Positions 18,521 through 28,341 of a stretch of DNA of 64,000 nucleotides are shown piece by piece; positions within the stretch are counted from its first letter, which is position 1, and every line of letters begins with the position of its first letter. A program made the position numbers and the translations under genes. The notes below the pieces were generated by a model. The model did no database searches. It saw nothing but the letters and a program-made list of their open reading frames with translations, and had not been told where the DNA came from. This DNA comes from a virus. The stretch is from IMG/VR virus record IMGVR_UViG_3300008116_000004. One strand, given 5' to 3'.

Positions 18521-19046
18521 TAATATGCTCCGGTAAGAATTCTAACCATGATTGTAGTGAACAATCCTTTAGTGTATTATAAAGCTCTTCTTTAGTAATG
18601 CAAGTGTTATCTCTAAGAACACTATGAACTACTTCACCTTCATCTACCCCTTCAGTTACTTTATGAATAACCGATCCAATAGTATGATACTTGGCATGAC
18701 CTTCCCAAGTTTTCTCTTGAGGGTCTTTACCTTTAAGTTCTGGATGTAGATGAATAGCTGCAGGATGTCCGTTAAAGATATCATGCATTGTTACAATATC
18801 TTTAGGAATAATTTTAAGATAACCATGAAGTGTTATAAAACATCTTCGTTTAGTAAAACGCAATGAGTTATGAATAGCCTCAAAGTTCATAATAGTGACC
18901 TTATCTACCGGTATATTATGTGACCATTGATCTTCATTTCTATTATTAGTAATAATATCAGTAGGCCAGACATCGAAGTGATCACAAATCTTCTTGAGTT
19001 CACTTCCTGTCTGACTAAAGAGTGCTATCCAAGGTCTCAATTGCAA
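18513..19046 (-). CDS. PurN-like formyltransferase (DpdN-like)
   Basis: ALFSQTGSE, LHGYLKII, NGHPA, GSVIHKVTEGVDEG; embedded in the que cluster. Confidence 0.85.
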   Translation of the reverse strand: MQLRPWIALFSQTGSELKKICDHFDVWPTDIITNNRNEDQWSHNIPVDKVTIMNFEAIHNSLRFTKRRCFITLHGYLKIIPKDIVTMHDIFNGHPAAIHLHPELKGKDPQEKTWEGHAKYHTIGSVIHKVTEGVDEGEVVHSVLRDNTCITKEELYNTLKDCSLQSWLEFLPEHINV

Positions 19047-19828
19047 AACTTTCTAAACTGTTCAATATTACCTTTAATAAACTCAAGTTGCATATCTGTT
19101 ACTTCTTCAGACATGTACTCAATAAGCTTAGTAGAGATCTTATCATCAAGACCAGTAGGACGATACTGCACACCATTTAATCCGTGAACAATAGGATTAG
19201 AAGTATCCACAGAATCAATCCACTTGTAATCTTTATAAGCAATAAACTCTTGAGGAAGACCGCAGCCGAGAAGGTGATGAGGCTTGTTAGTATCAATAAT
19301 ACCATCATTGAGAAGATCACTCAATAGTTTCTGACGACCTAGCATCCAAGCTGCATACTTATTAATAGGTCTAAGATTTTCTGTTGATGCAATATAATAT
19401 GAGTAATCAAAAGAGATTGCAACTTTATCTACACGAGGTGCAATGTCTTTATAGCAGTCAACTATCTCTTTATAAGTCTTCCCTTGTACAACACCTATTG
19501 ACTTAATAGAAGGATTTACTGCATACTTTGCTAGCCATTTATCCATCTTACGTAGAGTACCTAGAGTATCTTCTAAGATGTCAGGTATAATATACCAAGT
19601 AGGTTGTAATTTCTCAATCCATTTGAAGTATACATCACCGTCAAATGACTCGCCTAATTCAAAGATAGAATTATCAAGAATAACTTCACGACCATTAATT
19701 ACTGCATCCTTGAACATACGGTAGTATACCATATTAGATTCAAAAAGATGAACCAATGCATAATCATAATCGGTCATGCGCTGGACAGTAGGAAATATAC
19801 TTATAGGAGCTTCATGCGCAATTTTCAT
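19037..19828 (-). CDS. TGT-fold deazaguanine transglycosylase (DpdA family, DpdA3-like)
   Basis: ILDNSIFE, IPDILED, GVVQG, HHLLGC, DSVDTS TGT-barrel motifs; cluster context. Confidence 0.75.
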   Translation of the reverse strand: MKIAHEAPISIFPTVQRMTDYDYALVHLFESNMVYYRMFKDAVINGREVILDNSIFELGESFDGDVYFKWIEKLQPTWYIIPDILEDTLGTLRKMDKWLAKYAVNPSIKSIGVVQGKTYKEIVDCYKDIAPRVDKVAISFDYSYYIASTENLRPINKYAAWMLGRQKLLSDLLNDGIIDTNKPHHLLGCGLPQEFIAYKDYKWIDSVDTSNPIVHGLNGVQYRPTGLDDKISTKLIEYMSEEVTDMQLEFIKGNIEQFRKFCN

Positions 19829-20186
19829 TCAATACACCTTTATTCATAATAGCAAAGATCTGTTGAATCTCATCATAGTTCCATTTGCGCATTTCTGTAA
19901 TGCCAGAAATTTGATCTGGTTCATACCAATTATGAAATTTATTTTCTTTGCCTTTTATAGTATCCATTATTAGCTTTTCTAATGATAATGCTTCTTCTTC
20001 TGTTTCACAATAAACTGAATGCATTACTTTAATGTCAGTAAAGTAGTTACTAATAGGATAAGGCTCATCAGAACCTCTATACATAAGTCTATCCATAGCA
20101 TCTCTAGACTTAGTAATACCTACTTTATATACTACTTTAGGAATAGCAGTAGTACGTTTAAGTTTAGCCAAATAAACTTTATACAT
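19812..20186 (-). CDS. GIY-YIG/T5orf172-like nuclease
   Basis: VYL...YKVGIT...DRL...EALSLEK...GITE pattern. Confidence 0.6.
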   Translation of the reverse strand: MYKVYLAKLKRTTAIPKVVYKVGITKSRDAMDRLMYRGSDEPYPISNYFTDIKVMHSVYCETEEEALSLEKLIMDTIKGKENKFHNWYEPDQISGITEMRKWNYDEIQQIFAIMNKGVLNENCA

Positions 20187-20628
20187 AATGAATCATCCAA
20201 TCCACTACTAGATTAGTATTTTTAACTTTCCTTTTATCCTGACTATTAAGTGATGGTGAATAAAGAAATTCATTATTAGCAAGATCTGCTTTTTTATAAA
20301 ACTCATCATGCGGTATTTTAGACACAAACTGATTAAAACGATCTATAATCTTAAGAGTATCAAATCTATTTTCTTTACCTACAATACCTTTCATACGAAT
20401 ATACTCATTCGAATGTATATTTACTACTTTTACTTCTACACGCTCTCCAGTCTTAGGATCATAATGATCATAACCTGGATTATGAGAAGATGTCAAAATA
20501 TGGCCATCTTCTTTTGCACTCATATGTTCCATAATAATTGCTGCAAATGTAGCGTTAGTTTTAATTAACTCTTTTAAATTTTTACGACCATACTTTTCAA
20601 CTTGAGCATCTGTATATAAAAATGACAT
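20179..20628 (-). CDS. Putative PD-(D/E)XK endonuclease
   Basis: MEH...PGYDHYD...VEVK catalytic-like pattern. Confidence 0.5.
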   Translation of the reverse strand: MSFLYTDAQVEKYGRKNLKELIKTNATFAAIIMEHMSAKEDGHILTSSHNPGYDHYDPKTGERVEVKVVNIHSNEYIRMKGIVGKENRFDTLKIIDRFNQFVSKIPHDEFYKKADLANNEFLYSPSLNSQDKRKVKNTNLVVDWMIHYV

Positions 20629-20629
20629 G

Positions 20630-20842
20630 TTACTTGACCTTCATTCCATAGCCTGAAAAGGCAAAATTGGTTGCAAAAGTATCTAAACGTTTACCAGATA
20701 GAGTCTGTATATCTCTAAGTGCCTTAACCTTAGTATCGGTTTTAGCATGAGATACTGCAAGCAATTCTTTGAAGGCTTCTCGTTTTTGTTCAGTAGTCTC
20801 TGACTTCCAAACTTTTTGTACGTATTTGTCTAGATTAATCAT
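20630..20842 (-). CDS. Hypothetical early protein
   Basis: GGAG RBS before MINLDKY; first gene after its own promoter. Confidence 0.6.
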   Translation of the reverse strand: MINLDKYVQKVWKSETTEQKREAFKELLAVSHAKTDTKVKALRDIQTLSGKRLDTFATNFAFSGYGMKVK

Positions 20843-20858
20843 AGGTAATTTCTCCATT

Positions 20859-20892
20859 TTTTACCTGGTCTTCTAGCGACAATTAAATATAG
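20859..20892 (-). repeat. 34-bp exact repeat (-10 box plus leader) shared with 31929..31962
   Basis: CTATATTTAATTGTCGCTAGAAGACCAGGTAAAA at both loci, in opposite orientations. Confidence 0.9.
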
Positions 20893-20914
20893 ACTATTTT
20901 TGAAATAAGTGCAA
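20886..20914 (-). promoter_or_regulatory. Sigma70-like early promoter
   Basis: TTGCAC-N17-TATATT. Confidence 0.65.
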
Positions 20915-20939
20915 CTAATAAAAAACTCAATGATTTCAA

Positions 20940-21707
20940 TTAGTTACATGAATATCTACTGGTTTGAAGCTTGATATTACTATAGAATTCGTTCTTAACT
21001 GAAGGATCATCTAAGAAATCTCCGAGTAATACCGCTGTTTGAGTCATTGAGTTAGATGCACCAATTCCTCTGTTTTCACAGCAACCATGTTTTGCTTCGA
21101 TGTATACACCAACGTCTTTTGACTCTGTTGCTTTACTAATTGCCTTTGCAATATCACCGCAAAGCTCTTCTTGAAGAGTCCCACGACGAGCACAGTGCTG
21201 AGCAATACGAATATACTTACTAAGACCGATAACACGAGTGTGAGGTATGACACCGATGTATGCGGTACCTGTAACTGGTTGATGATGATGTGAACACATA
21301 GACTTAAGTTCAGCCCTAACCACAAGCATACCATGATAAGGCTCTGTACCATGCGATCCATCATTAGGGAACGAAGTAACCTTAGGTTCATTATGATACC
21401 TTCCACTCATAATTTCATTAACATACATCTTAGCAAGACGTCTTGCTGTACCATGAGAGTTTGGATCATTATCAACATCGATTAATAATGAACGTAGCAC
21501 CCCATCAAACTTCTCTGCTACCTCGTCAATGAGTAACTTACGATCATCATCGTCCATAAATTGGCTAATGTTATCGTTGGCAAAAAAACGAGCATTTGCA
21601 TCTTTAATTTTCTTTCTTATTTTCATTGAAACTGGGTTAAAACTAATAGCAGTTTCAATAGCTGTAGGCACTGAAAAACTAACTGGTCCTTTTACTTCAT
21701 TACTCAT
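20940..21707 (-). CDS. folE: GTP cyclohydrolase I FolE
   Basis: TARRLAKMY, SMCSHHHQP, IGLSKY, LQEELC, HGCCENRG. Confidence 0.95.
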   Translation of the reverse strand: MSNEVKGPVSFSVPTAIETAISFNPVSMKIRKKIKDANARFFANDNISQFMDDDDRKLLIDEVAEKFDGVLRSLLIDVDNDPNSHGTARRLAKMYVNEIMSGRYHNEPKVTSFPNDGSHGTEPYHGMLVVRAELKSMCSHHHQPVTGTAYIGVIPHTRVIGLSKYIRIAQHCARRGTLQEELCGDIAKAISKATESKDVGVYIEAKHGCCENRGIGASNSMTQTAVLLGDFLDDPSVKNEFYSNIKLQTSRYSCN

Positions 21708-22201
21708 GCGAACAAATCCTCATTCCATTCTCTATGACCTTCACGATAAGCCATGTTAGCTATCGTTTCACGAACTTCAACTTTAAAGCACCAGAGACGT
21801 TCTGCTTCACCTGGCCCCCACATATCAGGAATGTACACACCATTAACATACTTATAGAGCATGTCTGAAAGTCCTTCACAACCTAATTTTGGTAGAATAG
21901 TTAGTTTAGCTAAATTTTTACTTTCTAGCAACTTAAATGTTTCCATTTCTGGATCATCTTGTGCAACTAGCAATGTATGATCAAACTGATCCTCAAGTAC
22001 CTTCTTTAGCTCTTTAAGACCACCATAATCAGCTACCCAATTACGAATATCAAGGTGATCTGATCCAAAGTAAAATTTCATAGAGAAAGAATAACCATGA
22101 ATAAGATTACAATGACTATCTGCTCTCCATTGACGATATGCGCATGGAAAAGCATTATGGTATTCTTTAGTGCTAACGTATTTGTATGTTCTTGGTTCCA
22201 T
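21704..22201 (-). CDS. queD: 6-carboxy-tetrahydropterin synthase QueD
   Basis: HCNLIHGY, DYGGLK, FDHTLL, VEVRET. Confidence 0.93.
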   Translation of the reverse strand: MEPRTYKYVSTKEYHNAFPCAYRQWRADSHCNLIHGYSFSMKFYFGSDHLDIRNWVADYGGLKELKKVLEDQFDHTLLVAQDDPEMETFKLLESKNLAKLTILPKLGCEGLSDMLYKYVNGVYIPDMWGPGEAERLWCFKVEVRETIANMAYREGHREWNEDLFA

Positions 22202-22202
22202 T

Positions 22203-22418
22203 TTATTTCCTCATGAACGTTTCTATTCTACGGTCAATATATTCATCTAAATGTTTTTTAAACTTATCTTTTGCAGAAGGTATAATAATATTTCTAATAT
22301 TATCTGCTTTACGCCATTCACCTTCTTTATTGTGATGCCATTCATCATCTAAAGCATCAATAAGATATTCTAAAGATGTAATAACATCTTCAATAATTTC
22401 ACTACTTTTTCTTGGCAT
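22203..22418 (-). CDS. Hypothetical protein
   Basis: TAATG-coupled start MPRKSS at 22418. Confidence 0.55.
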   Translation of the reverse strand: MPRKSSEIIEDVITSLEYLIDALDDEWHHNKEGEWRKADNIRNIIIPSAKDKFKKHLDEYIDRRIETFMRK

Positions 22419-23281
22419 TATGTACCCCAGGCATTCTTCCAGAGTTGTACCTGTAAACGAGGAGTATAACGCCATCCATGTTTCATTGCAAGGTCTGCAA
22501 CCCATTTTTCATTAGTATCATATACCTTTGTAGTACCACCTGCAGGCATAAGGTAGATTGGAATATGCTGCATTGCACCACGTAGTGTCATAGAATAATC
22601 ATCGATAGCTTTAATTACATCTTGATAATCTTCTTCATTAGATACTACCCATTTAAAATAAGTAAGATTACCTATATCGTAATATTGTTTAATAATTTCT
22701 GGACGGATAGCTTCTTCCCACTTTTCACCTGAAGAAGGTAATTTTGAAGATACACTGAATGTGATGTTAAGATCAGAATAACTATCATTAGATTTAAACC
22801 ATTCAATTAACTCTGATTTTAATTCTTGTGTACCGTTAGTCTCAAATGTAATGTGAGTAAGATTCATGTCACGTTTAAAGAGTTCTTCAAACAATGCAAT
22901 ATATGAACGTTGCCATCCTAGTAATGGTTCACCTCCGGTGAGAATTAGATGTTTATCTGGTCCAAATTTACCGTCTGGCAAAAGTTCTTGTATCTTATCA
23001 ACAATTGCTTCTACAGTTAACATTGGTGAAAGATGCTTGAAGCGTACATCCCAAGATGCATATGAATCACACCCAGTGTGTACTAACGGTAAATTTTCAT
23101 ACTGGGTATATTGATTAGGATCAACTGAAAGACGTTCTTCAGATAGTTGACCACGAGGCATACCAAATCCAGCGCATTGAAAATTACAACCAAACACGCG
23201 CAGAAAAACGCTTGGAGTTCCAAGATACTGTCCTTCACCTTGAAGTGAATAGAACAGTTCAGCGACTTTAATTTTTGACAT
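22418..23281 (-). CDS. queE: 7-carboxy-7-deazaguanine synthase QueE (radical SAM)
   Basis: ELFYSLQGEG, FLRVFGCNFQC...GCDS, TGGEPL, ETNGT, PRLQVQLW. Confidence 0.95.
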   Translation of the reverse strand: MSKIKVAELFYSLQGEGQYLGTPSVFLRVFGCNFQCAGFGMPRGQLSEERLSVDPNQYTQYENLPLVHTGCDSYASWDVRFKHLSPMLTVEAIVDKIQELLPDGKFGPDKHLILTGGEPLLGWQRSYIALFEELFKRDMNLTHITFETNGTQELKSELIEWFKSNDSYSDLNITFSVSSKLPSSGEKWEEAIRPEIIKQYYDIGNLTYFKWVVSNEEDYQDVIKAIDDYSMTLRGAMQHIPIYLMPAGGTTKVYDTNEKWVADLAMKHGWRYTPRLQVQLWKNAWGT

Positions 23282-23287
23282 TATTTG

Positions 23288-23324
23288 CTCCTAGTTTTGT
23301 TTAATCAGTGGAAGGGCACTGATC
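23288..23324 (-). promoter_or_regulatory. Hairpin/pseudoknot leader resembling a class I preQ1 riboswitch upstream of queE
   Basis: GAUCAGUG-CCCUUC-CACUGAUU-AAACAAAACUAGGAG. The stem plus A-rich tail ends in the SD; the loop deviates from the preQ1-I consensus. Confidence 0.35.
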
Positions 23325-23556
23325 ACTTATTTATATTATCTTTTTCAATAATAGATATTAACATACGGTTTATTTCTTCACTAATAGCTTTTTCTAACTC
23401 TGGTGTAATCTGCTTATTAGCTTTGTGAAGACTTCCATCTTTCTCTATTTTAAAAATATCCACATCCATATACATTTCACCATTTTCATTTTCATGAACA
23501 AAGTCCCCTGGTGGAAAAGATATAAAATATTCCCCTATTCTAAATCCGTCTCTCAT
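23323..23556 (-). CDS. Hypothetical protein
   Basis: ORF track; coupled to def. Confidence 0.55.
   Translation of the reverse strand: MRDGFRIGEYFISFPPGDFVHENENGEMYMDVDIFKIEKDGSLHKANKQITPELEKAISEEINRMLISIIEKDNINK
23328..23335 (-). promoter_or_regulatory. T4-type late promoter upstream of queE
   Basis: Exact TATAAATA inside the last codons of the upstream ORF. Confidence 0.55.
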
Positions 23557-24037
23557 TATAATATCCTTTTAATGCTTTATCTCTGTGATATCTTCCAGCA
23601 CGATTAAAAAATAAAATACCATCAAGATGATCTAACTCATGTTGAAAGACTCTTGCTGTAAGACCTTGAAATACTCTAGTAACTGTTTCACCTGAAGGTG
23701 TTTGAAAACGTACTTTAATACCAATAGGCCTTTTTATTTTTACATTTACGTTAGGAAAAGAGAGACATGCTTCCTCTAATAATTCAACTTCTTTACTCTT
23801 ATCTACAATTCTTGGATTAAAACAAACTAGGTTTTCTGGGCTACCTCTCATAGCAAAAACTCTATAAGGAATACCTAGTTGATTTGCTGCAATACCAACT
23901 GCATTATATTGATTCATTGCTTGCATCAATCCAGTAGCTAGATCATAAGGATCTCCTGGAGGATTTTTAAAGTCAAATTCTTCACAAGGTGTAGTTAGTA
24001 TACTGTTAGGATATTTAATTAGAAGATCTTCACTCAT
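23540..24037 (-). CDS. def: Peptide deformylase
   Basis: GIAANQLG, EACLSFP, QHELDHLDG. Confidence 0.95.
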   Translation of the reverse strand: MSEDLLIKYPNSILTTPCEEFDFKNPPGDPYDLATGLMQAMNQYNAVGIAANQLGIPYRVFAMRGSPENLVCFNPRIVDKSKEVELLEEACLSFPNVNVKIKRPIGIKVRFQTPSGETVTRVFQGLTARVFQHELDHLDGILFFNRAGRYHRDKALKGYYNERRI

Positions 24038-24210
24038 ACCCACTCCTCAACAATACCTAAAAGTTCAGCAACAAATAAAAATGCTGCAAGATATAATATA
24101 TCATAGCCAAACCAAATAACAGATGCACAACCAATCAAACGTAAACTACTTTTTACATAAGACCAGTATCCATGCCATGATTTGTATTTGTTTTCAAAAT
24201 TATCACTCAT
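24034..24210 (-). CDS. Small membrane protein (58 aa)
   Basis: Translated by hand: MSDNFENKYKSWHGYWSYVKSSLRLIGC...AELLGIVEEWV; ATGA overlaps at both ends. Confidence 0.6.
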   Translation of the reverse strand: MSDNFENKYKSWHGYWSYVKSSLRLIGCASVIWFGYDILYLAAFLFVAELLGIVEEWV

Positions 24211-25922
24211 GCTGCTATCCTTGAGAAATTTTTATGCTTTTCAAACTTAAGCACGTTTGTAAATTTATCGTACATCTGATCTGTTTTATGGCTTATTATA
24301 AATGTATTTGTGTCCTGAGTCAAGGTATTAATGATCTTCAGGAACTCATCAGTGCCATTACTATCCAACGAACCGTCGAGGACTTCGTCCATAATAAGTA
24401 GATTAGTGCTAGCACTATTGCGTAACTTAGCAACAGCTCTCCAAGTGAATAGTATAGCCAAGTTAATTCGCATTTTTTCTCCTTCTGAGAAGGAGGCGTA
24501 GCTAAATTCATCTCTGAATCTTGATTTGATTGTTTCTTCGAAGTTTTCATTTAGCTCAAAGTTTACAAAGAAGTCCATTGCAGCCAAATACTTGTTAATT
24601 AGTTTGTTAATAACAGGTACATACTGTTTAATGATTCTTGCTTTGATACCGTTGTCCTTAAGGATGATTGATGATATATTTAATGCATCCTTGTCTTTAA
24701 GGAGCTCTGTCTTTTCTTCTCTTTGTTTGTCAAGAAGATCTTCTAGTTCTTTCATCTTATCATCGTTCATAATAAGATCATCAGATTTGTCTTGAAGATC
24801 TTTTATTTCTTTAGCAATCTTTTTACATTGTTGTACAAGACCTGTAATAGAATTACTTCTAGTAATCTTATCAATATTCAATGAAGAAATTTTAGATGAT
24901 ACATCAGCAATCTGTTGGATCTTTTCTTGTATCGTGGTAATTTCTTCCTTGAGTTTTTCAATACCTTGCTGGGTTTCCTGTATTTGTGCTTGTTTTGCAT
25001 CGACAGTCTCACACTTAAACGCATTATCAATATCCTGCTTGCATGTAGGACAGCTATCGTGTGAAGTAAAGAACTCGATGTCAGCTTGGAGTTTGGAAAT
25101 TTTATCTGATAATTGGATGTCGAGTCTTTGTAATGTTTTTTGCTTTTTGTTGATTTGCTCTTGGTCTTCGATAGAGGCTCTGAGCGATAGAATTTGTTCG
25201 TCGATAGTTTCAATTTCATTCTTTTCTCTTTCAATGAAATCTGTATAATCTTTTAACTCTTTTTTAAGCTTCTCAATTTGCTCTTCACTATTCTTTTGCA
25301 TGGCAACGATATGCTCATGCTGCATTTTAATCTTCTCTGAAGTAAGATCATATTGATATTCTACTTCAAGTAACTTTGTATTATTGCTACTAATTTTATC
25401 TTTAAGAAGACTATTCATAGTAGAGAAGATCTGTATGTCAAGGAGATCCTCGATTACATCTCGTCTGTTCTGCGCTGTAAGCTGCATGAAAGGAACAAAC
25501 GAGGCAGAACCAAGTACTACCACCTGACAAAACGATTTGTGGTTAAGCTTAAGTATTTGCTTTTCTAAAACCTCTTGATAGTCTTTTGTTTCAGCATCTT
25601 GATTGATTAGATTATTATTTTGATATACTTCAAAGATAGATGGTTTAAGACCGCGTACGATCTTATACATATGTGAACCAATATTAAACTCAATCTCTAC
25701 AACAAGATCTTTCTTGTTAATAGAATTTAATAACTGTGGTTTATTTACTCTACGAAATGGTTTATTATATAAAACAAACGATAAGGCATCAAGCATAGTT
25801 GATTTGCCTGCACCATTCTCACCAACAATCAGTGTGGTGTTGTTTTTACTATAATCAATCTCTGTAAATGTATTACCGGTACTGAGAAAGTTCTTCCAGC
25901 GAATCTTTTTAAAAAATATCAT
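24207..25922 (-). CDS. Recombination endonuclease subunit gp46 (Rad50/SbcC-like)
   Basis: WKNFLSTGN, GENGAGKST, CPTC hook, FSEGEKMRI, LIMDEVLDGSLD. Confidence 0.96.
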   Translation of the reverse strand: MIFFKKIRWKNFLSTGNTFTEIDYSKNNTTLIVGENGAGKSTMLDALSFVLYNKPFRRVNKPQLLNSINKKDLVVEIEFNIGSHMYKIVRGLKPSIFEVYQNNNLINQDAETKDYQEVLEKQILKLNHKSFCQVVVLGSASFVPFMQLTAQNRRDVIEDLLDIQIFSTMNSLLKDKISSNNTKLLEVEYQYDLTSEKIKMQHEHIVAMQKNSEEQIEKLKKELKDYTDFIEREKNEIETIDEQILSLRASIEDQEQINKKQKTLQRLDIQLSDKISKLQADIEFFTSHDSCPTCKQDIDNAFKCETVDAKQAQIQETQQGIEKLKEEITTIQEKIQQIADVSSKISSLNIDKITRSNSITGLVQQCKKIAKEIKDLQDKSDDLIMNDDKMKELEDLLDKQREEKTELLKDKDALNISSIILKDNGIKARIIKQYVPVINKLINKYLAAMDFFVNFELNENFEETIKSRFRDEFSYASFSEGEKMRINLAILFTWRAVAKLRNSASTNLLIMDEVLDGSLDSNGTDEFLKIINTLTQDTNTFIISHKTDQMYDKFTNVLKFEKHKNFSRIAA

Positions 25923-25925
25923 AAA

Positions 25926-26243
25926 CTATGCAATCCATATTAAATATAACAGTACCATGATAAACAAATAACCAAATAAACTCAACGGTTTTCCTTTACG
26001 GTATTTAATTTTCCTTGTTTTTTTAACACCACCCCAAGTTTCAGTTTGTCTTCTTGTCATACCACCCATGCTAATAGTGGTAGTTCTTTTAGTTTTACCG
26101 TTTGGTAATAGTGAATAAGTTACTCTGTTAGATTTATTACCGTAAGAAACACTCTGTGTAATACCTTTAGCGGAATTTTGAGTAATAGTAGTATTACCTA
26201 CTTTTCTTCTTCTAACCCAACCTCCAGTACCTTTCTTGCCCAT
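25926..26243 (-). CDS. Basic protein with C-terminal TM anchor
   Basis: K/R/T/G-rich N-terminus and hydrophobic tail. Confidence 0.55.
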   Translation of the reverse strand: MGKKGTGGWVRRRKVGNTTITQNSAKGITQSVSYGNKSNRVTYSLLPNGKTKRTTTISMGGMTRRQTETWGGVKKTRKIKYRKGKPLSLFGYLFIMVLLYLIWIA

Positions 26244-26476
26244 TATGCTGAAACTTTCACACCTATCATTTCAACTTCTGCATCAGTCTCGATCCAAAGT
26301 TTAGCACCACAAGGTCTAGGCTTATTTGGACGGTATACCATACGTGATGGTCCTTTAATGTCTACTTCCATACAATACTTAACAACGCCATTTTCTTCAA
26401 CACGACATACCGGCTCATCTTTACCATGTTTTGCATTTTGTTGTATGATATTTCTATTAATATGAATTATCTTCAT
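26243..26476 (-). CDS. Hypothetical phage protein
   Basis: IIHINRN...GPSRMVY...CGAKLWIET; coupled to gp47. Confidence 0.65.
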   Translation of the reverse strand: MKIIHINRNIIQQNAKHGKDEPVCRVEENGVVKYCMEVDIKGPSRMVYRPNKPRPCGAKLWIETDAEVEMIGVKVSA

Positions 26477-27582
26477 AATACGTCATGAGCCTCTACATAG
26501 AGATTTTGTATAATGTTTTCTACTCGTTTTCTATCTGTATTAATATTCATACTGTCAATAAACTTATTAATAATACTCATAGTATCTTCTGCTTCATTGA
26601 CAATATCATCATCTGCTTCTAAATCAAGATGAAAGTGATCTTCTACTACTTGTAGATCAGCAACCCCCGCTTTTTCTAACTTCTCGATAACAATGTCAAA
26701 CCAAAACGGATTTGTTTTATTTTTTACTACTACTTTAACATAGCAATCTTTATAATCTTTTACGTCAAAAGAAAAAACTTCATCCATATTCTTATTAAGA
26801 TCATCATAAAAGAACTTATGAAAGATCTGATTAGGGTTAGGAATAAATTCTAATGTTCTGGTGGATGTATCCAGGATATGAAACCCTTTTGTATCCACAT
26901 AGTCACTCCAAATATACTGTACAGGAGTCCCCAGATAATGGATATTACCGCTACTGGAACGAGTATGATAATGCCCAGAAAGTACGATATCGAATTTATC
27001 AAAGATCTTAGGATCGTCACCATGATCACTTACCTGTCCTTTATACATCTCATACCCAGCTAATTCAAGATGACCTAATGCAATAGGTGCTTTTGTCTCT
27101 TTAATTAACTCTAATGTTCTTTCTCTATTCTCATCACAAATCCAAGGCATGAGAAATAATCCTAGATCGTCTTTAGAAAGATGCAGGGTACAAGGTGCTT
27201 CATAGTAAATATACGTCTTAGGGTAACGCTTAATATCTCTAACTACGTCATTGTATGGCTTAGGATTACCAATAAGCTCTACTAACGAGTTTGTTGCATT
27301 GGTATTCTTGTAGTAGGTATCATGGTTGCCAGCAATAATGTGCAACTCAAGACCGCGTTCATGAACTGGATCGAGAAAATCTTCTCTAAGACGTCTGGCA
27401 GTTACATAGTTAACATACTTACGGCGATCAACGAGATCCCCAAGATGAATAATATGAGTAATGCCTTCTCGATCAATAGTAGGGAAAAAGATTTCATCTA
27501 AAAACTTCTTCATATGGTTGTGCATGATAGGAGAATCATTTCTGACTCCCCAGTGAGTATCAGTTATTAATGCTATCTTCAC
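26473..27582 (-). CDS. Recombination endonuclease subunit gp47 (Mre11/SbcD-like)
   Basis: TDTHWG, LGDLVDRR, GNHD, GHLEL, SGHYH. Confidence 0.95.
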   Translation of the reverse strand: MKIALITDTHWGVRNDSPIMHNHMKKFLDEIFFPTIDREGITHIIHLGDLVDRRKYVNYVTARRLREDFLDPVHERGLELHIIAGNHDTYYKNTNATNSLVELIGNPKPYNDVVRDIKRYPKTYIYYEAPCTLHLSKDDLGLFLMPWICDENRERTLELIKETKAPIALGHLELAGYEMYKGQVSDHGDDPKIFDKFDIVLSGHYHTRSSSGNIHYLGTPVQYIWSDYVDTKGFHILDTSTRTLEFIPNPNQIFHKFFYDDLNKNMDEVFSFDVKDYKDCYVKVVVKNKTNPFWFDIVIEKLEKAGVADLQVVEDHFHLDLEADDDIVNEAEDTMSIINKFIDSMNINTDRKRVENIIQNLYVEAHDVL

Positions 27583-27797
27583 TTAGCTACCTCTATATTT
27601 CTACTACCACGTCCGCGTTTATAAATGTTAGTATTAACTTCCATATTATGTCTACGGATTGCATCATCACAGTAATCACGAATTGCTTCTAGTCTAATAA
27701 TATAATTTAGACGGAGATTGTCTTGCTTTGTAGTAGCAAGACTTTGTGCACAATCAATAACTACCTGTGGTACTAGATGTAGTTTTTCATTCTTCAT
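27579..27797 (-). CDS. Hypothetical protein
   Basis: ORF between gp55 and gp47. Confidence 0.6.
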   Translation of the reverse strand: MKNEKLHLVPQVVIDCAQSLATTKQDNLRLNYIIRLEAIRDYCDDAIRRHNMEVNTNIYKRGRGSRNIEVAK

Positions 27798-28341
27798 AGA
27801 ACTTCTCCACGCCTGTTCTTCTTGCTTTATTCTTTTTTTGTTTTTCTGCTTGTTTCTTATCGTAAGACTCTACAAGACCTTTCATATACTCATTATCTAA
27901 ATTAACTGTGACGTTATGATCATCATCACTCATACCTTGATCAGCTAACATACCTTCAAAGTAAAAATTCTCTAATGTCTTCTGTTTAATATAAAGATGT
28001 CTTTTTTCTTTATCAATACGTCTTAGGAAAGCAAACCATATAATCTGTGTAAAGTAGGCGAATGGATTGTCTGATTTTTCTGGATTAAAATTATTAAGAT
28101 AGTTAATACAATTCTCTAATCCATCAGAGATCATTTCATCTCTATACGTATAACTAATAAAGTTTGGTTTAAGAGACAATCGTGTTGCAATCTTGTATAG
28201 ACATTCACCAATATATGCAGGTATACGTGGCTCAGGTAGATTATTTTTCTTTGCTTCTTCTATATCTCGTTTATATTGTAAGATAGCAGTATAAAACTTT
28301 TTATTATCAATATAGTGTTTGTTATTCTTACCTATAGCCAT
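27787..28341 (-). CDS. Late-transcription sigma factor gp55
   Basis: HYIDNKKF, YIGEC..KIA, NFISYTYRDEMISDG, NPFAYFTQI. Confidence 0.95.
   Translation of the reverse strand: MAIGKNNKHYIDNKKFYTAILQYKRDIEEAKKNNLPEPRIPAYIGECLYKIATRLSLKPNFISYTYRDEMISDGLENCINYLNNFNPEKSDNPFAYFTQIIWFAFLRRIDKEKRHLYIKQKTLENFYFEGMLADQGMSDDDHNVTVNLDNEYMKGLVESYDKKQAEKQKKNKARRTGVEKFYEE

Follow-up and report, generated by a model that had tools for sequence, protein, structure and literature searches.

The 45 bases 5′ of queE on the minus strand of an uncultured T4-like phage form, as we consider somewhat more probable than not from comparison of sequences, a new minimal preQ1-I-like OFF riboswitch candidate that would exert feedback on phage deazaguanine synthesis. 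Comparison across a family of related leaders establishes a stem (P1), an invariant loop and tail, a 5′-terminal position and a linkage to 7-deazaguanine operons. By putting 7-deazaguanines in place of guanine in their DNA, phages escape restriction by the host. The literature that we searched gave no account of how phages regulate the 7-deazaguanine pathway, and a search for preQ1-type riboswitches in phages found nothing relevant. The leader belongs to a very small RNA motif kept by more than 100 uncultured phages in front of 7-deazaguanine (DNA-modification) genes; if it senses a product of the pathway, phages would meter this GTP-draining pathway by feedback through a dedicated RNA sensor, and phage DNA hypermodification would be under feedback control.

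The queE leader in the window

The window, that is, the whole stretch of 64,000 nucleotides that was analysed (IMG/VR record IMGVR_UViG_3300008116_000004), carries the candidate leader between a late-promoter-like box and queE (Table 1). Re-reading of the minus strand confirmed the letters and coordinates that an earlier note, made from the sequence alone, had given for it. Two nucleotides (AG) separate the box TATAAATA from the P1 5′ strand UGAUCAGUG, and CAAAUA lies between AGGAG and the AUG of queE (23281-23279, minus strand). The sequence AACUAGGAG occurs a single time within the window, and late-promoter boxes number seven, which is not above chance. Downstream of queE follow, in order, a 100-aa ORF, queD, folE and a TGT/DpdA-like gene. 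On the upstream side, the stop codon UGA of a 77-aa ORF (23325-23323, minus strand) falls within the base of the P1 stem.

Table 1. Features of the queE leader and of the adjoining genes in the window
Feature	Position	Strand	Remark
T4-type late-promoter-like box TATAAATA	23328-23335	-	2-4 nt upstream of P1
P1 5′ strand UGAUCAGUG	23317-23325	-	family-conserved 7 bp, 23323-23317
P1 top bases of the 5′ strand	U 23318, G 23317	-	invariant in the family
6-nt loop CCCUUC	23311-23316	-	L1 is C 23316, variable in relatives
P2 5′ strand CCU	23313-23315	-	within the loop; proposed
L2, UC	23311-23312	-	C 23311 is the candidate ligand-pairing base
P1 3′ strand CACUGAUUA	23302-23310	-	conserved 7 bp, 23310-23304; first bases C, A invariant
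A-rich L3 tail AACAAAACU	23293-23301	-	ends in AACU, family-invariant
Shine-Dalgarno AGGAG	23288-23292	-	AGG 23292-23290 is the proposed P2 3′ strand
queE	22418-23281	-	287-aa QueE-like (7-carboxy-7-deazaguanine synthase-like) radical SAM protein; candidate regulated gene
77-aa ORF	23323-23556	-	upstream; no family match
Peptide deformylase gene	23540-24043	-	Pfam PF01327, E 4.6e-38; two genes upstream of queE

RNAfold predicts for the window's leader a 9-bp hairpin of -9.9 kcal/mol that leaves the ribosome site unpaired. This hairpin is only mildly better than shuffled sequences (z -2.25 and -1.88); because these z-scores are weak, folding energy alone is no proof of more than chance, and it is the comparative data that supply such proof. 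A simple scan flagged a terminator-like site on the plus strand (23304-23323), where the hairpin appears as its reverse complement with a T-rich run behind it. In an ORF scan of positions 19000-28000, all long ORFs were on the minus strand.

Distribution of the leader family

The same element was found in at least 119 distinct 300-nt contexts from IMG/VR and metagenome data and in at least 63 distinct motif sequences, counts that take in closely related contigs. Among the 35 IMG/VR loci that encode QueE relatives, three (L011, L015 and L031) have the leader. An exact-word scan for the stem-loop recovered it before further queE genes and, in L038, before a queD-like gene, and relaxed scans that used only words of the loop and of the ribosome site returned many more copies with quite different stems; that of the L079 group reads CGGGUG/CACCCG. 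When the loop was left free on the window's own stem, the genuine sites all carried CCCUUC. Three kinds of matches were set aside as chance, namely L049-L051 from this last scan, GC-rich stem-loops that lack the tail (L037, L042, L043 and L045) and the L262/L270 group, whose stem has only 3 bp. In 100 sources searched with covariance model R1, no divergent second copy appeared. Every scan held some words fixed, and each position was left free at least once except the G-C pair at the top of P1 (G2-C9) and the C and U of AACU; these were fixed by every search pattern, which imposed their constancy.

The motif is present in no cultured phage among the 50,697 GenBank phage records scanned and has therefore escaped bench work so far. 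Nor does the DNA of the window match any GenBank phage. The nearest isolate by QueE is Synechococcus phage BUCT-ZZ01 (45.6% identity), whose queE abuts the upstream gene and has no leader. A scan of 185,579 bacterial and archaeal species genomes yielded three matches, two of them chance. The genuine one, L293 (FZLS01000081.1, Rhodobacteraceae bacterium Water_Bin34), lies on a phage-like 11.6-kb contig in a metagenome-assembled genome, and its leader and queE start are identical to those of the IMG/VR phage contig L096. L293 is probably a phage contig mis-binned into this assembly, or a prophage.

Conservation and covariation of stem, loop and tail

Members of the family are 23-45 nt long and occur in three forms, with a P1 stem of 4-9 bp. 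Long forms, to which the window belongs, have a P1 of 6-9 bp and a tail of 8-15 nt, whereas short forms of the type CGUG-CCCUUC-CACG-UAAACU-AGGAG have a P1 of 4-5 bp and a tail of 4-8 nt; in the tandem form, found at about 17 loci, a short unit is followed at once by a long one. Among 45 aligned long forms, both sides of five of the seven P1 pairs have changed, pairs 3-7 take two to five pair types each, and 96.9% of P1 cells are paired as compared with 78% in shuffles. The P1 covariation score of 0.477 (0.101 in shuffles) exceeds that of all 500 shuffles, and registers obtained by sliding P1 all collapse. Covariation among queE leaders, which the earlier note had named as a means of telling a regulatory RNA from a simple hairpin, is present in the stem. 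The top two pairs of P1, U-A and G-C, never vary; the U and A were free in the first relaxed pattern, and the G-C pair was held fixed by every one. The P1 of short forms is 100% paired.

The loop follows the consensus N-C-C-U-U-C, in which the varying base is the first (C, A or U). Among the 63 listed motifs, it reads CCCUUC in 53, ACCUUC in four, UCCUUC in two, CCAUCC in three and CCAUUC in one, so that the loop-1 base is C in 57, A in four and U in two. In the 7-bp register, the loop of all 63 ends in C, and the base before it is U in 60 and C in three. The A-rich tail has an invariant end, AACU, and then comes AGG, normally the start of AGGAG.

These observations change the geometry given in the earlier note, which had read a 5-bp P1 closing the 10-nt loop UGCCCUUCCA: the leader is better described by two more invariant P1 pairs, U-A and G-C, and a 6-nt loop. 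The same note had reported a deviant A at the ligand-pairing position. Since the 7-bp register places a C last in the loop with a U before it, as in type I preQ1-I riboswitches, this deviation disappears.

Over a 36-nt core, the window is 100% identical to L039, L048 and L046, whose queE DNA is about 75% identical to that of the window and whose 60 nt upstream are 62-70% identical. Full identity of the core where queE DNA has diverged this far argues for purifying selection on the core. Taken with the stem covariation in 45 sequences, this conservation indicates that the element of the window is no chance hairpin. Taken on its own, the 4-bp P1 of short forms has a marginal stability (-2.7 to -4.9 kcal/mol, z about 0), so that their conservation cannot be put down to hairpin stability. 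Moreover, the tail AACUA(G/U)G is preserved in tandem first units, which lack a gene directly behind them; its retention where it is not a ribosome site indicates that it is part of the RNA fold. The distance from loop to AGG increases with P1 length (slope 1.5, the forms not being independent samples), and such a lengthening of the tail is expected if it must cross the P1 groove.

Tandem arrangements are seen at L061:664-722 (minus), L123:1024-1082 (plus), L191:1529-1590 (plus) and L327-L332. The short unit stands directly behind a TATAAT box, and the long unit that follows bears the ribosome site.

A proposed loop-tail pseudoknot

Pairing of the loop CCU with the AGG of the ribosome site (P2), which would make the fold an H-type pseudoknot, is possible in 63 of 63 listed motifs. 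The six P2 positions are constant in long forms, even when left free in the scans, and searches for long-form P2 variants gave unrelated chance matches only. Variation is found in the first units of tandems, in which a loop CCAUUC or CCAUCC goes with a tail CUAUG; the middle P2 pair has thus changed from C:G to A:U. Among 21 short units, this middle pair is C:G in 14, A:U in seven and unpaired in none, and P2 is 100% formed. Two scans, one of IMG/VR and one of metagenomes, left both middle-pair positions free, and neither showed a third combination in a genuine unit; the lone C/U case is the L262/L270 group discarded above. The remaining two P2 pairs never vary. The C:G to A:U change probably reflects a single evolutionary event in one lineage of tandem first units, and this one compensatory change lends the CCU:AGG pseudoknot partial support at the level of sequence.

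An alternative pairing of the loop CUUC with GGAG of the Shine-Dalgarno sequence, proposed in the earlier note, has three mismatches in the tandem first units, where CCU:AGG is fully paired, and the sole covariation available thus backs CCU:AGG. A register with a 9-nt loop, UGCCCUUCC, in which the loop is matched to UUCCCUNAC of type III, was judged less likely, as it leaves an invariant A unpaired against a covarying neighbour. In tandems, P2 of the first unit frequently contains A:U, the weaker pair.

Relation to preQ1-I riboswitches

Rfam returned nothing above gathering threshold in the window except a tRNA, and no match at gathering threshold in 13 loci of the family. The comparison with the Rfam preQ1 model that the earlier note had suggested did not bear out a membership: a permissive search of 221 nt with PreQ1 (RF00522) gave 16.3 bits (E 0.45) where the gathering threshold is 39, took an upstream AGUG as P1 and drew its score mostly from the A-rich tail. 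We rejected this match as evidence because the AGUG register is not conserved in relatives, being missing in L011 and L015. Short and tandem forms gave no PreQ1 match at E<=10. As a positive control, the RF00522 model passes its cut-off in B. subtilis.

Type I preQ1-I riboswitches carry a U directly 5′ of the specificity C, and their tail contains CUA; their key bases are U6, U7, U16, C17, A30 and C31, and G34 pairs into P2 (PMC8752633, PMC11625349). The phage motif is like type I (e.g. that of Carnobacterium antarcticum) in its hairpin P1 followed by an A-rich tail, in the conserved U-C step immediately before the P1 3′ strand, in the proposed engagement of the first Shine-Dalgarno bases in P2 and in its location before preQ-pathway genes. 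The likeness of the tail, already remarked upon in the earlier note, is borne out: it is A-rich, ends in AACU and matches the AACUAGG of type I, its A-A-C-U-A-G-G corresponding to A30, C31, U32, A33 and G34. Unlike type I, the phage motif has a 6-nt loop instead of about 12 nt, a P1 of 4-9 bp instead of about 5, neither the conserved UU atop the P1 5′ strand nor a loop A to pair the tail U, and it is confined to uncultured phages and missed by RF00522.

In type III, represented by the leader of E. coli yhhQ, the loop is pyrimidine-rich (U6 U7 C8 C9 C10 U11 N A13 C14), P2 consists of C9-G30, C10-G29 and U11-A28 and buries the AAGG ribosome site, and conserved adenines precede P2 behind a linker of variable length (PMC10622847). 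The phage motif resembles it in a loop that is very short, rich in pyrimidines and includes CCCU, in three identical P2 pairs (C-G, C-G and U-A, proposed in the phage motif) on the AGG of the ribosome site, in a tail linker of variable length followed by conserved adenines and, as we infer, in an OFF wiring through burial of the ribosome site. Whereas the type III loop, UUCCCUNAC, counts 9 nt, with two uridines in loop 1 and with AC ahead of P1, the phage loop NCCUUC has UC in that place and a single, variable base as loop 1; the phage tail, moreover, inserts CU between the adenines and AGG. Loop-1 uridines contact preQ1 in types I-III (PMC10622847, PMC8752633), and the U7C change in the E. 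coli type III RNA lowers affinity 35,000-fold (PMC10622847). These uridines are absent from the phage motif, in which loop 1 is one variable base; for this reason, and because its loop has 6 nt as compared with 9-12, we do not file the motif as a member of RF00522. Judged by sequence, the phage family matches no catalogued RNA family.

The interpretation given in the earlier note is supported in part: its core, a preQ1-I-like leader that would control queE, holds. The leader is conserved, linked to queE or queD, 5′-terminal and endowed with features of preQ1-I; the geometry first drawn for it needed three corrections.

Promoter position and gene linkage

A box of the TAAATA, TAAGTA or TATAAT type stands upstream of P1, its end at a distance of 1-9 nt in 37 of the 63 listed members and of 15-17 nt in a further 10; an exact box is absent in 16, nine of which are second tandem units. 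Such a position just upstream of P1 implies that the element starts the transcript (predicted start).

All genuine instances listed stand before queE, before queD or at the head of an operon in which queE comes second. The first gene downstream is QueE, of several subfamilies, in 82 loci, an ORF of 56-59 aa followed by queE in about 40, QueD/PTPS in six, a flavodoxin gene followed by queE in four and a UDP-glucose-dehydrogenase-like gene followed by queE in two. The motif-linked QueE proteins are 35-78% identical to that of the window. There is one site per locus, apart from the tandem copies and two split pairs (L254 and L282), in which separate copies of the motif stand before the small ORF and before queE.

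The closest QueE relatives, L001 and L032 (90-92% identical), do not have the motif, their queE directly abutting, and being coupled to, the upstream ORF, whereas more distant phages (QueE 72-78% identical) carry a leader identical to that of the window. This pattern indicates that promoter and leader form a cassette that is gained, lost or exchanged independently of queE. Its absence is seen on comparing L001:2890-3003 and L032:2890-3003 with window positions 23282-23335.

A candidate OFF switch and alternative explanations

In the mechanism that we propose, the putative ligand would be a 7-deazaguanine intermediate, either preQ1, preQ0 or a close relative. In its absence, P1 alone would form, AGGAG would be free and queE would be translated. 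Once the pathway product has accumulated, it would bind between P2 and the top of P1, where the invariant G-C and U-A pairs would be buttressed by the AA of the tail, and would pair with the last loop C (23311) as in preQ1-I. Binding would lock CCU:AGG, hide the ribosome site and lower synthesis of the DNA-modification precursor, and repression of queE would extend by coupling to the genes behind it. As the ribosome site is free in the default fold, binding is predicted to turn expression OFF. The candidate aptamer might also bind two stacked ligands through the type-I-like UC and the tail C, or a phage-specific derivative.

The arrangement in tandem units and in split copies within one operon is known from riboswitches, and by this analogy the tandem loci and the split copies at L254 and L282 would count for a riboswitch. 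Against it, the 9-bp P1 of the window is stable enough that the element could work as a plain hairpin. The aptamer of preQ1-I, at 34 nt, is the current minimum, and the short-form core CGUG-CCCUUC-CACG-UAAACU-AGG spans 23-25 nt. The more ambitious joint proposal, a phage-only new riboswitch class with the smallest natural aptamer known that binds a 7-deazaguanine intermediate without loop-1 uridines, is one that we advance tentatively and regard as possible yet somewhat doubtful.

Protein-binding hairpins, too, typically combine a variable stem with a loop and a single-stranded tail that are invariant, which brings up a translational operator at which a protein or another trans factor, of phage or host and possibly QueE itself or another protein of the pathway, would recognise loop and tail and block the ribosome site. 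Such an operator would resemble the autoregulation of T4 gp32, gp43 or RegA; tandem units could seat a dimer, and the loop-1 uridines required for preQ1 contact are missing. The motif nevertheless spans different phage backgrounds, with late-type TAAATA as well as sigma-70-type TATAAT promoters, and the first genes behind it differ. Where flanks were fetched (a few queD-led loci lie outside this check), QueE alone is common to nearly all loci, and QueE diverges greatly, to 35-78% identity, while the RNA stays identical. Under an operator, it would moreover be a coincidence that UC, AACUAGG and CCU:AGG recur in preQ1-I RNAs, which bind a ligand, and we regard this explanation as unlikely.

The start of the element at or near the predicted transcription start, and its presence or absence among close relatives such as L001 and L032, are what a promoter-plus-leader cassette would show. 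They would suit a ligand-independent 5′-terminal hairpin or pseudoknot that acts as an mRNA stabiliser, sets a fixed translation rate and travels as a mobile promoter-linked cassette. We hold this to be quite unlikely, as a stabilising hairpin requires neither an invariant loop nor an invariant tail, and the 4-bp stem of the short forms is marginal. Among the matches listed, the motif is confined to 7-deazaguanine operons, in one copy per locus apart from the tandems and the two split pairs, a restriction that argues for pathway-specific sensing and not for a generic expression cassette. A chance structure, or a terminator ending the upstream gene, could draw on the weak folding z-scores (-1.9 to -2.25) and on the plus-strand terminator-like site at 23304-23323; it is made very improbable by the covariation, the occurrence in at least 119 contexts and the strict gene linkage, by the missing U-run behind the stem on the coding strand, and by the fact that no gene in 19000-28000 would use a plus-strand terminator.

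If the riboswitch interpretation is true, the preQ1 riboswitch family would gain a viral branch, and a ligand-binding RNA fold would be defined that lies about a third below the current minimum size. The motif could then be of use in RNA structural biology and aptamer engineering, and as a metagenome marker of DNA-hypermodifying phages.

Other genes behind the motif

The 56-59-aa ORF that lies between motif and queE, as at L191:1591-1758 (plus), L069:1754-1927 (minus), L212:7507-7674 (minus) and L151:7280-7456 (plus), has a conserved N-terminus of the type M-x-x-F-D-x-x-P-D-P-x-x-H-x-x-I-S-F-x-K and no match in Pfam or PHROG. In L254 and L282 a separate copy of the motif precedes this ORF, which would place it in the same regulon, and it may be a new partner of QueE. 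A flavodoxin gene stands behind the motif and directly before queE at L055:3456-3989 (minus) and L076:7846-8373 (plus), which fits the need of the radical SAM enzyme QueE for flavodoxin as reductant. At L088:4550-5302 (minus) and in L133, the first gene behind the motif is UDP-glucose-dehydrogenase-like (phrog_9148), an unexpected member of a deazaguanine operon.
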